A stretch of DNA of 64,000 nucleotides from Turneriella sp. (GTDB lineage Bacteria; Spirochaetota; Leptospiria; Turneriellales; Turneriellaceae): contig CBDIID010000003.1 of the NCBI GenBank assembly GCA_965279515.1, positions 1,856,001 to 1,920,000 on the forward strand, read 5' to 3'. The notes beneath the pieces were generated by a model that saw nothing but the letters and a program-made list of their open reading frames with translations, made no database searches and had not been told where the DNA came from. The position numbers and the translations under genes were made by a program. Positions 51,139 through 58,428 of the stretch are shown here, one piece after another; positions within the stretch are counted from its first letter, which is position 1, and each line of letters opens with the position of its first letter.

Positions 51139-52350
51139 ATGCTCGCTGCGCTTCTGTCTCTGGTAAACGCCGGGGCCGGTCTCGACGCCCACCGCCGCCG
51201 CTACGTCGTCAATACGAACGTCTACGCGCTCATCGTCATTGCCATAACGCTCCCCTATCCTTTTATTTACCTCTACCTGCACGTCGACGTCGACCCGCTC
51301 ATTCTTTCGGGCTCGCTGATTTTTCTCGCCGCCTATTCCGGGGTAATTTTTTTGAATTACCTGACCCTGCATACCCTGGCGAAGCTGCTGTTTTTTGCGG
51401 CGGTGCTCTGCCAGCTGTTCTCGATCTGCGTGATCTTCGGTAAGGGCACGGGGCTCGACCAGTTTTTCTATGCGGCCTTTGTGGGGATCTTCTTCGTCGT
51501 CGACCGGCACCAGAAGATCATGATTATTCCTTCGCTGGCGGTGCTGGCGGCGGAATACCTGCTCATACAATACATCAACGCGTATATTGATCCGCTCGTA
51601 AAAATCTCGCCCGCTACCGCGACGATCATCAGCTATATCTCATCGGGCTCGGTGTTCTCGCTACTCGGCCTGCAGTGCCTGTTTTTTTACTGGGGAAATC
51701 TCAAAGCGGAAACGGATCTCGAAACCGCGCGGCGGCAATCTGACCAGCTGCTGCTGAATATTCTGCCCGAGCCGATTGCCGACGAGCTGAAAAAAACCGG
51801 CGCTGTCGAACCGGTCGAGCACGACTCCGTGACGGTGGTTTTCACCGATTTTGTCGGCTTCACCGCGAGTTCCGAATCGCGCAACCCGACCGATCTCTTG
51901 CGTGATCTCGACGACTGTTTCTCGGCCTTCGATGCGATCATTGAAAAACACGGGCTGGAGAAACTGAAGACGATTGGCGACGCCTACATGTTTGCAGGTG
52001 GTGTGCCGACTGATCTCGCCGACAACGCGGCGCAGTGCATTCTCGCGGCAAAAGAAATCGTCGCCTATGTCGAAAAACGCCGGTCGGATAACCCGCGTTT
52101 CTGGCAGATCCGCGTGGGCGTGCACACGGGGCATCTGATCGCGGGCGTGATTGGCCGCAAAAAATTCATCTACGACGTCTGGGGTGATACGGTCAACACG
52201 GCAAGCCGGCTCGAAGCGGCAGGCGAGCCGGGGCGGATCAACACCTCGGCGGCGACCTATGATTTAATTAAGAAAAAATTCACCTGCACACCGCGCGGCG
52301 AGATTGCAGTGAAGGGCAAGGGTCCGCTAACGATGTACTTCGTGGAATAG
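51139..52350 (+). CDS. Membrane class III adenylate cyclase
   Basis: TMs; FTDFVGFT, KLKTIGDAYM, YDVWGDTVNTASRLE, VKGKG. Confidence 0.93.
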   Translation: MLAALLSLVNAGAGLDAHRRRYVVNTNVYALIVIAITLPYPFIYLYLHVDVDPLILSGSLIFLAAYSGVIFLNYLTLHTLAKLLFFAAVLCQLFSICVIFGKGTGLDQFFYAAFVGIFFVVDRHQKIMIIPSLAVLAAEYLLIQYINAYIDPLVKISPATATIISYISSGSVFSLLGLQCLFFYWGNLKAETDLETARRQSDQLLLNILPEPIADELKKTGAVEPVEHDSVTVVFTDFVGFTASSESRNPTDLLRDLDDCFSAFDAIIEKHGLEKLKTIGDAYMFAGGVPTDLADNAAQCILAAKEIVAYVEKRRSDNPRFWQIRVGVHTGHLIAGVIGRKKFIYDVWGDTVNTASRLEAAGEPGRINTSAATYDLIKKKFTCTPRGEIAVKGKGPLTMYFVE

Positions 52351-52473
52351 GCCTTGTCTGAAATGGGCGAAAAACTTCTTCCGAACGCCCCTGAGGGCCT
52401 GGCCCCTTTTGAACCTCCTCGACTTTTGAACAAAAATGGCTTGAAACCGCATTTGAACAGTATGTTTGAGCAC

Positions 52474-52704
52474 ATGCAAGGGACTTTACATAGGTATGTG
52501 GAAATAGACCCGGCTAAATACGACGGGAAGCCCGTAATTACGGGTACTCGAGTGCCCGTTCAGGCCCTCGTGATGCATTATCGGTCAGGTATGCTCTTAG
52601 AGGAAATACTTGAAGGGTACCCGAACATTACCTCAGCCCAGTTATTTGATGCATTAAGCTACTATTTTGATAATAAAACCGCGATCGATGCCGAATTAGA
52701 ATGA
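52474..52704 (+). CDS. DUF433 antitoxin
   Basis: DP...GKPVITGTRVPV, EEILEGYP, DALSYY; start may be 52462. Confidence 0.92.
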   Translation: MQGTLHRYVEIDPAKYDGKPVITGTRVPVQALVMHYRSGMLLEEILEGYPNITSAQLFDALSYYFDNKTAIDAELE

Positions 52705-53036
52705 TTCGGCTGTATTTGGACGAGGACGTCCACAAGCAAGTAGCCCTTGCTCTCAGGCTAAGAGGGTATGATGTTGTGAGCGTTCATGAGCTGGAAATGT
52801 GGAATTTATCAGACGAAGAACAGCTAGCTTTCGCCACTCAAGACCACAGGGCGATATTCACGTTTAACCGCGGAGATTTTGCCAAATTACATGAGAATTG
52901 GCTATCTTTAGGGAAGAGCCACAACGGCATAATTACCAGTAAGCAACTTACACTTTCCGAAACAATTCAGAGGCTGAACAGGCTTCTATATGCGAAAAAG
53001 GCAGCAGAAATCGAAAACCAGCTTATTTGGTTATGA
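52701..53036 (+). CDS. DUF5615 PIN-like toxin
   Basis: LYLDEDV, GYDV, SDEEQL, TFNRGDF, HNGII; ATGA overlap with DUF433. Confidence 0.92.
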   Translation: MIRLYLDEDVHKQVALALRLRGYDVVSVHELEMWNLSDEEQLAFATQDHRAIFTFNRGDFAKLHENWLSLGKSHNGIITSKQLTLSETIQRLNRLLYAKKAAEIENQLIWL

Positions 53037-53095
53037 CTACGCAAGGTCAATATTCGAGCTTACGGGGCGAAGTTCATTAGTCCAATCGCCCACTT

Positions 53096-53311
53096 CAGAC
53101 AACAAAATTTACCTGCTGCGCCGCTGCGGTGCGGTAGCTCCTCGCGTGCTCGGCCCTACGCGCCAAAGATCGCGGACAAAGCACAAGCGGGGAGCTTGTT
53201 TTGTGCTTTGCCTGGAGGCGCTACGGGCGGATTGAGTGACGCAACATGGCTCTACAGGATGCAAAGTTGAACAAAGATTCACTCAACCTCAGGTAAATTC
53301 CGCGTTAGCTG
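53096..53311 (+). repeat. Long attC-like element (complete)
   Basis: AAC(53101)-aa-AATTTACCTG ... CAGGTAAATT-ccgc-GTT(53304); internal hairpins 53177-53210 and 53232-53286. Confidence 0.7.
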
Positions 53312-53363
53312 CCGTACCCAAGAATTTCAAAGAGTTCACGAAGAGTCAATTTTTCTAAAAAAC

Positions 53364-53399
53364 TTGACTCAATACGTATCCCTCAATATAGTCTACGTA
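53364..53399 (+). promoter_or_regulatory. Sigma70 promoter (leaderless) with two TACGTA operator boxes
   Basis: TTGACT-N17-TATAGT-N6-ATG; TACGTA at 53373 and 53394. Confidence 0.8.
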
Positions 53400-53656
53400 T
53401 GAGTGCTGTGAAACTGACGCTGAAGTTAGAAGAATCTGCCATCAATAAGGCTAAGACTTACGCTAAGGTTAATAGAACTAGCCTATCTAGATTGGTGGAG
53501 ACTTATTTTAATGAAATTTCGGGTGGCACAAAGAAAAAGGCTTCAGCGAAAATTTCGCCCCGCGTAAGGGAATTGTCAGGTATACTTAAGGGGGCAAATA
53601 TTGATTACAGATCCGAAGTTACTTCAATTCTCCGGAAAAAGCATGGTTTAGATTGA
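53399..53656 (+). CDS. RHH antitoxin (DUF6364-like)
   Basis: KLTLKL...AKTYAK..TSLSRLVETYF, SPRVRELSG. Confidence 0.88.
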   Translation: MSAVKLTLKLEESAINKAKTYAKVNRTSLSRLVETYFNEISGGTKKKASAKISPRVRELSGILKGANIDYRSEVTSILRKKHGLD

Positions 53657-54075
53657 AAAAGAAAGTATTCTTTGATTCGGACGTACTGCTCGATGTACTC
53701 ATCCAACGTCCCAAGCACTATGGGGAATCGGCTGAGGTTCTTAGCTTGGCCGATTCTAAGGTCGTAGACGGATACACCTCTACACTCATTTTGTGCAATT
53801 TGCATTATATCCTGCGAAAGCAATTAGGGGAAAAAGTGGCCATGCTTCATGTAGCAAAGTTGCTGGAAATGCTTGAAATACTCGACTTGCGAAAAAATGA
53901 CATTAGCGCCGCTATGAACCTCGGCATGCCAGATTTTGAAGATGCAATTCAATCATGCATCGCATTCAGGACGCGCATGGATTGGATAGTGACACGAAAC
54001 AGTAAAGACTTCAAGAAATCCTCTGTAAAACCCCTGATTCCGGGTGATTTTATCGAACTTGGTTACGGCAGATAA
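53653..54075 (+). CDS. PIN domain (VapC) toxin
   Basis: VFFDSDVLLD, DFEDAIQ, IVTRNSKDF; TTG start overlapping the antitoxin stop. Confidence 0.92.
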   Translation: MKKKVFFDSDVLLDVLIQRPKHYGESAEVLSLADSKVVDGYTSTLILCNLHYILRKQLGEKVAMLHVAKLLEMLEILDLRKNDISAAMNLGMPDFEDAIQSCIAFRTRMDWIVTRNSKDFKKSSVKPLIPGDFIELGYGR

Positions 54076-54210
54076 AAAAATTTAGCTGCGCGTGTGCTCC
54101 CTAAGGGAGATTCGCTTCGCGCATCCAGGGTCTCCGCAGCAAAACCCGCGGACAAAGCATAAGACGCTAGCTTACCAGCAGCAAGCCGGACACTTGTCTT
54201 GTGCTTTGCC
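54069..54210 (+). repeat. Second, decayed/truncated attC-like element
   Basis: Left arm 18/21 identical to 53096-53116 with AAC changed to AAA; shares CGCGGACAAAGCAYAAG and CTTGTYTTGTGCTTTGCC; no matching right arm. Confidence 0.7.
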
Positions 54211-54343
54211 CCGAAGTACTCCGTGCCCATGAAGCAATATAATAAATTCCTCCCCCGGAAACTCGTTTACAATTTGCCAGCAAATAACTCACAGCGCTAT
54301 GATAAAAATTCCGACCGATAAACCGTTCAAAATACCAGGGGTT

Positions 54344-57799: not shown

Positions 57800-58024
57800 A
57801 TTCGGACACAGATCTCTCTCGACGCCGAGGTCTATGAAGAAGCTAAAGTCTATGCTGCCGAAAGCGGGGTATCTTTGGCTGAGTTCTGCAGACAGAGCAT
57901 CAATGAACAGCTTGTCAAATACCGCAAAGCCGGTCCCATTGCGCGCTTCGCTGGTGTCTACCTCGGGCAAGGCGATGATAGCTCAACCGTCGACGAAGTC
58001 GTTTATGGCAAACGTTATGTATGA
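57797..58024 (+). CDS. CopG/RHH antitoxin
   Basis: MIRTQISL...GVSLAEFCRQSI; DEVVYG tail. Confidence 0.88.
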   Translation: MIRTQISLDAEVYEEAKVYAAESGVSLAEFCRQSINEQLVKYRKAGPIARFAGVYLGQGDDSSTVDEVVYGKRYV

Positions 58025-58428
58025 GCGAAAAGGTATTCATCGATAGCGGCATCTTGATCGCGTATATGAATGCCCGCGACCGCTGGCATCAGCAGGCGCT
58101 CTACCTGTTCCAGGAAAAAAATATTCAACCTTTCACTTCTGAACTTGTGATCTCCGAAACCTATTCCTGGTTTCTGCACCAGGCCGGCGAAGAGATCGCC
58201 CGCCAGTTCCGCTTGTTTGTGAAGGCCATACCTAAATTAAAAATTTTATTCATGAATGCTGACGGTCTCGATGCAACGGCGGTAATGCTCGATAAGCACC
58301 GGGGGGCCAAGCTGACCTACGTCGATGCGGCAAGCCTTGTGCATCTCGAGGTGCAGAAGATTCATACAGTCTGGTCGACAGATTACCATCTGTCCCTGAC
58401 CGGCAGGACAATTAAGCCCGTTAAATAG
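58021..58428 (+). CDS. VapC PIN toxin
   Basis: VFIDSG, D.WH, VISET, TYVDAAS, STDYH. Confidence 0.9.
   Translation: MSEKVFIDSGILIAYMNARDRWHQQALYLFQEKNIQPFTSELVISETYSWFLHQAGEEIARQFRLFVKAIPKLKILFMNADGLDATAVMLDKHRGAKLTYVDAASLVHLEVQKIHTVWSTDYHLSLTGRTIKPVK

Follow-up and report, generated by a model that had tools for sequence, protein, structure and literature searches.

What is the long, branched hairpin that lies between two small gene pairs of a Turneriella chromosome, and which enzyme acts on it? The stretch of DNA analysed here (the window) comprises 64,000 nucleotides of contig CBDIID010000003.1, positions 1,856,001 to 1,920,000 (G000:C3:1856001-1920000, where G000 is the genome under study), and the element occupies positions 53101..53306 of its forward strand. 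An original prediction, made from the letters of the window alone, had described it as an unusually long relative of attC, the recombination site of integron cassettes. We find that the element is very probably the cassette-end recombination site of a system that is integron-like, not a textbook integron, and that is served by a tyrosine recombinase without the IntI-specific insertion that carries the I2 helix (I2-less hereafter).

The site was delimited by its profile family, by alignment and by its fold. It is 206 nt long, slightly less than the ~210 nt originally given, and it starts with AAC (53101-53103) and ends with GTT (53304-53306). An inner stem of 10 bp is formed by AATTTACCTG (53106-53115) and CAGGTAAATT (53290-53299), and the loop that separates it from the core triplets is asymmetric, with AA (2 nt) after AAC vs CCGC (4 nt) ahead of GTT. 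Three arms follow inside the stem, at 53117-53152, 53153-53228 and 53229-53289. All motifs quoted in the original prediction are found at the positions given there, and the second and third of its three sub-hairpins were borne out. The first one (CTGCTGCGCCG/CGGTGCGGTAG) is not the conserved arm, in which 53117-53124 pair with 53144-53152; it is excluded because bases 53113-53115 also close the inner stem, so that the two structures are mutually exclusive. This hairpin is due to a substitution in the window copy (GGTGCGG vs GGTGCCG in most copies of the type). When folded on its own, the window copy beats its shuffles modestly, both as DNA (z of -1.63 for the top and -2.00 for the bottom strand) and as RNA (-2.12 and -3.95).

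That the site is nevertheless beyond chance follows from a genome-wide family and from covariation. An iterated profile search of the genome yielded 158 matches, of which 128 have both ends intact: 72 in one array (array 1), 50 in another (array 2) and 6 outside the arrays. Counting partial sites as well, the two arrays comprise 77 and 52 sites, each array on one strand, and span 84 and 70 kb. They make up 3.2% of the genome, and the GC content of their cargo is 44-45% vs 53% overall. Site lengths are mostly 206-217 nt, with a minority of 186-188 nt, and 126 of the 128 full sites end in GTT. The 2-vs-4 spacer and the perfectly paired inner stem, originally read from a single copy, hold for the family as a whole: at least nine of the ten pairs form at an offset of +2 in 112/122 array sites, at +3 in 7/122, and at 0 or +1 in none of the 122. 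Searching with the DNA sequence as a query, we found homologues in 12 of 13 congeners and in 13 of 19 genomes of the same family; the same query gave no homologue in 21 more distant genomes.

For the consensus fold we aligned 49 diverse sites (51 representatives, from which 3 mis-delimited ones were left out and to which the window copy was added). The fold is a four-way junction with strong covariation, as 30 of its 39 pairs vary on both sides. Among the pairing cells 92% can pair, vs 72% with shuffled and 25-42% with slid partners. With its conserved AAC/GTT ends, its homologues and its covariation, the element thus belongs to a distinct class of recombination sites, as had been proposed. 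Several features had been overlooked at first: a split outer stem with a C:A mismatch, the arrays, the recombinase and an SOS-type box.

The outer stem becomes visible when the two ends of a cassette are compared. The flank before AAC complements the start of its own cassette in at least 6 of 7 bases in 107/119 cases (61/71 in one array and 46/48 in the other); the same flank complements the following cassette in only 19/119 (9/71 and 10/48), and random pairs do so in 14% and 23% of cases. Pairing runs to about position 18, and position 11 is C:A in 115/119 and never Watson-Crick. Duplicated cassettes retain the site downstream of them, not the one upstream. For example, one pair is identical over 776 nt (own site 1.0, preceding site 0.60), and a second matches over 702 nt at 97% (own site 0.98, preceding site 0.62). 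The own-start complementarity and the duplicates therefore show that a cassette is a gene with its 3' site, and that the complete outer stem forms only once the cassette is excised as a circle. Each cassette consists of TT, a short arm, the cargo, a complementary arm and a long site ending in G, and the cassettes follow one another head to tail behind an attI-like head. From the flank complementarity, and from a C|TT junction in the window that is described below, we infer a crossover at G|TT, which in the window site would fall at 53304/53305.

Both arrays begin with such a head, which is not preceded by a site and has a TTGACA hexamer and AATAGAC before GTT in common. Nine heads (those of both arrays and of seven congeners) have a TTG(A/C)C hexamer upstream and a motif ending in N-GTT, with a poor -10 box. 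The pattern AG-NN-AATAG-R-Y-GTT occurs four times in the main contig, each time at a cassette start, although these starts also served to define it. Public contigs from one sample (four runs) also cover the 13.6-kb head of array 1, at a depth of ~3-6 on the unique parts; the joints in these contigs have short sides and are driven by repeats, and they are uninformative on circles or rearrangement.

A family with a high copy number, strong folding and scattered copies could also be a self-spreading repeat, similar to repetitive extragenic palindromes (REP) or miniature inverted-repeat transposable elements (MITE), or a structured RNA family that clusters in variable regions. The test of end complementarity contradicts this, and so do the strict common orientation, the attI-like heads and the movement of each site with its upstream gene. 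An Rfam scan of the site gave no relevant match and three unrelated ones below the threshold. The Flavo-1 RNA motif (RF01705) was considered as a candidate and rejected; it was not matched in Rfam, and the alignment excerpt of it in the supplements of PMC2864571 is unlike the site. We regard a repeat or RNA family as extremely improbable. The additional role as a structured RNA that had originally been considered found no support.

The modelled circles also hint at a strand. The bottom strand folds better in 118/119 of them; on this strand the mismatch at position 11 becomes a G:T pair, and AAC pairs with GTT in 113/119 folds. Alternatively, the I2-less recombinase might act on double-stranded sites through the classical route of two exchanges, with the hairpins serving cassette formation, transcript processing or termination. 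The enzyme does align to XerA without long gaps, the loop is flanked by inner and outer boxes that roughly form inverted repeats, and a terminator-like match lies in arm 2 (4 found vs 2.5 expected). In addition, IntI itself keeps a double-strand activity (PMC7790495, in excerpt). We still consider this unlikely: the outer stem is complete only when both ends of one cassette are joined, and the sequences of the outer and inner stems vary freely while their pairing is kept, which argues for recognition of structure, not of sequence. Note that the strand used, and what replaces I2, are the least certain parts of our account.

Which recombinase would act on these sites? The genome encodes four tyrosine recombinases, namely a XerC-like protein, XerD and proteins of 366 aa and 301 aa, and none of their genes adjoins an array. 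The cut-off for integron integrases was passed by none of the four, nor by any recombinase in 5/5 array-bearing congeners. The 366-aa protein (G000:C3:2926093-2927193) matches PF00589. It scores 161 bits against the integrase model TIGR02249 (cut-off 265), and its best model is the XerA-type NF040815, with 196 bits vs a cut-off of 220. In its structure model (mean predicted local distance difference test, pLDDT, of 81) the best fold matches are the Vibrio cholerae integrase VchIntIA (2A3V) and XerA. Compared with VchIntIA it is without ~41 residues in the region of the IntI-specific insertion, as query residues 272-294 face 2A3V residues 182-245 (23 vs 64 residues). The insertion is absent in 14/14 aligned homologues, and the catalytic residues R225, K253, H316, R319, H342 and Y351 are invariant.

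In 7/12 congeners the 366-aa orthologue lies divergently beside the first site of an array. Among the other five congeners, four have a contig end within ~410 nt upstream, and in one (G001) the gene is detached, as it is in the genome under study. Plasmids carry 151 matches to the recombinase; the 40 of them that were listed are distant (32-37%).

The gene of the 366-aa protein is preceded by a 16-bp direct-repeat box of the type GAAC-N7-GAAC. With at most one mismatch, this box occurs four times in the main contig: ahead of the recombinase (G000:C3:2927200), of a LexA-family gene (4316023), of recA (2600637) and of a PA0069 radical-SAM gene (4249241). We take it to resemble the alphaproteobacterial LexA box. 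In five congeners the box abuts lexA in four and lies ~300 nt upstream of it in the fifth, and it precedes the recombinase in 5/5. The four genes are thus a candidate SOS regulon, in which LexA would repress the recombinase. The box differs from the LexA palindrome of Leptospira interrogans, TTTG-N5-CAAA (PMC3789691, in excerpt).

Another host recombinase could be the active one, either the 301-aa protein or XerC/XerD, as in phages that are integrative mobile elements exploiting Xer (IMEX). The 301-aa protein (G000:C3:2781225-2782130) is a long-branch, integron-like enzyme with a SAM_4 domain, is conserved in 7 congeners, and also has the integron-integrase and XerA models as its best ones. 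A small stray cluster of sites lies ~23 kb from its gene. This gene is otherwise unlinked to arrays: in two near-complete congeners its orthologues are ~2 Mb from them, and in G005 and G012, where sites do occur next to a recombinase of the 366-aa type, the 301-aa query found no orthologue. It is also without an SOS-type box. We hold a role of these other enzymes to be very unlikely.

We also looked at how far such systems extend. A scan of 1/64 of the collection gave 79 distant loci, of which 46 have an I2-less recombinase, 12 an I2-bearing one and 8 one on the Xer side, while 13 are unclassified. The split-stem signature with C:A was found 16 times, in 10/46 I2-less loci; 4 times in 1/13 unclassified loci; and once in the 8 Xer-side loci. 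There were no signature cassettes at the 12 I2-bearing loci. In shuffled sequence the signature appears about once per 640 kb. Clear distant arrays are present in Bacillota, Bacteroidota and another spirochaete, and signature arrays also occur in 3/4 class-level and 3/6 order-level relatives, where one of the three order-level cases is a lone cassette. The site of one class-level relative matches 78 Leptospira plasmid records, a match that puts the source of the window close to that group, and in the 20 of them that were listed there is no annotation under the site; the 206-nt type itself, when searched on plasmids, gave no match. The class had originally been called lineage-specific. This is true of the 206-nt sequence type but does not hold for the outer-stem signature, which is present in the distant relatives, on Leptospira plasmids and, adjoining related recombinases, in Bacteroidota and Bacillota.

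The distant systems differ in their details. In class-level relatives the sites are 160-178 nt long with a 3/6 loop, and the recombinase is co-oriented just upstream (L138-L140; G036, G039 and G034). Two Bacteroidota loci (L072, L077) have sites of 61-123 nt and a co-oriented recombinase, and a Bacillota locus (L061) has sites of 275-352 nt and a divergent one. Single signature matches in the archaeal loci L059 and L064 may be due to chance.

The sites could still be true cassette sites and the I2-less enzyme a bystander, if the arrays were orphans produced by a canonical IntI that is no longer encoded or that visits on mobile elements. Orphan clusters are common (PMC4889954, in excerpt), and in the genome under study the recombinase is indeed far from both arrays. 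However, IntI is absent in 6/6 array-bearing genomes tested, the I2-less gene stands at the head in 7/12 congeners, in more distant relatives it adjoins signature cassettes, and not one signature cassette was seen at the 12 I2-bearing integrase loci. The canonical core is scarce as well, with RYYYAAC in 18/122 and GTTRRRY in 19/122 array sites. We judge orphan arrays to be distinctly improbable.

A dedicated I2-less cassette system would work as follows. One strand, probably the bottom one, would fold into a hairpin. The recombinase would bind a region made up of the AAC/GTT box, the outer stem of 14-18 bp with its fixed mismatch at position 11, the 2/4 loop and the bulge-free inner stem of 10 bp, with the three arms as a variable terminal structure. 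The I2-less 366-aa enzyme would cut at G|TT and excise cassettes as circles, which would be inserted at the attI-like head and occasionally at look-alike sites in the chromosome. Since the recombinase is separated from both arrays in the genome under study, it would act there on both in trans. LexA would repress the recombinase, so that cassette shuffling would be turned on upon DNA damage.

Several observations weigh against this account. Between the 366-aa gene and the nearer array lie ~0.8 Mb, and the 6.2 kb upstream of the gene's closest orthologue, in G001, contain no site. Because both of these recombinases are detached, the link between enzyme and sites rests on synteny in related, non-independent genomes, and 36/46 distant I2-less loci have no such cassettes. 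The covariation was scored on the alignment from which the structure came, and its controls are lenient. In arm 1 a basal T:G is near-invariant (47/49); it pairs on the top strand and not on the bottom one, the opposite of the position-11 mismatch. The search pattern for the box in congeners was built from recombinase promoters, and only the lexA matches are independent. The longest open reading frame (ORF) is antisense to the array in 45 of 118 intervals that have one, a layout that differs from typical integrons. Finally, excision, circles and integration are steps deduced from sequence, and no event was observed.

Where does such a system stand in evolution? In a tree of 30 rows, from which the long-branch 301-aa enzyme and loci without signature cassettes were left out, IntI clusters with the I2-less cassette recombinases to the exclusion of Xer (100/100). 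The tree nests IntI among the I2-less enzymes with a support of 83/84, and monophyly of those enzymes is not rejected (approximately unbiased test, p-AU 0.44). It is possible, and we suggest it tentatively, that we are looking at a living stage from before I2, i.e. a single-strand cassette system, widespread and under SOS control, whose mark for strand selection resides in the DNA (the fixed C:A or G:T outside the cut) and which needs no protein insertion. Canonical integrons would then be derived: they would have acquired I2 and come to carry the mark in the L box instead.

The ability of integrases to work on folded single-stranded sites is ascribed to the I2 segment, and those who studied this transition point out that intermediates are missing (PMC7790495, in excerpt). 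The main survey tool defines integrases by this segment and concludes that recombinases without it are not IntI (PMC4889954, in excerpt). With an intact I2-less system of more than 100 cassettes, a conserved head and SOS-type control at hand, the origin of single-strand recombination can be put to a direct test. Bacillota and Bacteroidota are thought to be nearly free of integrons (PMC9024848, in excerpt); our results suggest that integron-like gene capture is present yet uncounted in both, and on Leptospira replicons.

What, then, happened in the window? All of the following features lie on its forward strand. A secondary integration site (52341..52353), recognised by sequence comparison, overlaps the stop codon of a gene for an adenylate/guanylate cyclase. 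It resembles the attI-like heads (CAG-NN-AATAG-R-Y-G|TT) and has C as its final base where heads have G; the resulting junction, C|TT, is consistent with a cut after the first base of GTT. The first cassette starts at 52354..52369 with TT and a 14-nt arm that pairs, in the fold of the modelled circle junction, with the outer arm ahead of AAC (53087..53100). This arm complements the start of its own cassette (best match, score 16 vs 11 for the next), with the C:A mismatch at position 11. The cargo is a DUF433 gene (52462..52704; PF04255, E 1.7e-19; start codon at 52462 or 52474) followed by a DUF5615 gene (52701..53036; PF18480, E 4.6e-17), presumably of the antitoxin type and of the PIN-like toxin type, and the cassette is closed by the 206-nt site.

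The second cassette starts at 53305..53319, and this stretch complements the bases before a degenerate site at ~54070 (score 15 vs 12). A consensus scan places a sigma-70-like promoter, TTGACT-17-TATAGT, at 53364..53392. It precedes a DUF6364 gene (53399..53656; PF19891, E 2.3e-20), which from its position would be of the antitoxin type, and a PIN-domain toxin gene (53653..54075; PF13470, E 1.5e-17). The degenerate, truncated site that closes the cassette (54056..54237) matches positions 6-163 of 252 of the profile (E 2.5e-13); its AAC is altered and its 3' part is gone. The window therefore carries a pair of toxin-antitoxin cassettes inserted at a secondary site, and of these the second has decayed. 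The DUF433/DUF5615 pair also occurs among the array cassettes, and the DUF6364/PIN pair in array 1. In 4/4 congeners examined, no site was found within ~1.5 kb after the cyclase gene; the genes downstream differ in these congeners, and the exact empty site was not recovered. Seven stray clusters have a first cassette start that can be located, the window included, and all begin at head-like sequences; for the other partial strays no clear start was located. Another PIN-domain gene lies at window positions 58021-58428, with no cassette site detected nearby.

The arrays form a large reservoir of toxin-antitoxin genes and of unknown ones. Among the 150 of 175 ORFs that were scanned, 63 have Pfam matches, ~28 of them to toxin-antitoxin types, and 87 have none. 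Defence-like cargo includes an LA2681-like HEPN protein, a KAP NTPase and DUF7380/DUF4209 (L037:3273-4778, L039:6641-10045 and L038:6798-8591). Many cassettes with antisense ORFs, in both arrays, appear to share long, near-identical terminal arms. A cassette of ~191 nt without an ORF recurs at least 11 times across both arrays, with copies that are 92-100% identical (e.g. in the regions L034:14290-14530 and L004:13550-13950). In both arrays, transposase genes (rve and DDE types) are found repeatedly a short way inside the start of a cassette (L034:850-2052, L036:6126-7328, L038:540-1742 and others), and the same short terminal sequence at several cassette starts suggests a targeted insertion next to the GTT arm. 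In array 2 (L040:5200-19600, i.e. G000:C3:3785200-3799600) two intervals of 8.9 and 5.5 kb hold several genes, including ClpP, DsbD and AraC-type ones; these are either very large cassettes or an interruption of the array. In the congener G011 (L023:2940-4790) the four cassettes nearest to the head are near-identical short repeats that look ORF-less, which suggests repeated recent integration of one cassette.

How does this system compare with those already known? In the full-text literature, a coverage outside which most subscription papers fall, we found no description of such sites or of cassette arrays with I2-less recombinases. The closest systems are the sedentary chromosomal integrons, such as the Vibrio superintegron and those of Treponema. 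They share the divergent tyrosine recombinase, a head site with a -35-like hexamer, long same-strand arrays, the G|TT boundary, AAC/GTT ends, hairpin sites and the many toxin-antitoxin and unknown genes. Control by LexA, described for intI (PMC8876359, in excerpt), is predicted here. Such control is frequent among integrons, though not universal. In contrast to them, the system described here is without the IntI-specific insertion and its I2 helix, its inner stem has no extra base, its loop is 2/4 and its cores are not RYYYAAC/GTTRRRY. It also has an outer stem of 14-18 bp with a fixed C:A, a four-way junction as terminal structure and many antisense cargo genes. Treponema sites measure 63-132 bp (PMC3607928, in excerpt) vs mostly 206-217 nt here.

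The differences from canonical attC and from orphan clusters are similar in kind. Here the 10-bp stem is unbroken, the surplus bases are on the GTT arm and the sites are longer, whereas canonical attC sites measure ~55-141 nt and have one or more extrahelical bases in the L box, on the R''-L'' arm. In canonical attC it is the bottom strand that recombines, as folded ssDNA and with replicative resolution; for the sites described here the folding energies favour that strand. Like a cluster of attC sites lacking integron integrases (CALIN), the window holds an integrase-free cluster of two cassettes at a chromosomal look-alike site. Two things differ from CALIN and attG-type sites: the same genome also carries the likely recombinase and intact heads, and its secondary sites reproduce the longer head motif, not just a short core.

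The supplementary tree of PMC4889954 reportedly has 21 insertion-less integrases near attC sites, and these may include relatives. The 'integron-like' simple tyrosine recombinases of Smyshlyaev et al. (2021) resemble the 366-aa enzyme in that its nearest model is the XerA-type NF040815, with a score below the cut-off. In the excerpt of PMC8138268, no cassette arrays or sites are assigned to the insertion-less members, and the insertion is called essential for integron function. The IntDes subgroup proved to be unrelated. XerC/D with IMEX such as the CTX phage are I2-less recombinases that act on a folded single strand (PMC7790495, in excerpt); in contrast, here a dedicated non-Xer enzyme groups with IntI (100/100), and there are cassette arrays, not one dif site. 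What the sequences show are the unit boundaries, the conserved fold, the head motif, the linkage of genes, the missing insertion and the shared box. The system is integron-like in its working, and not an integron by the IntI or attC criteria tested.
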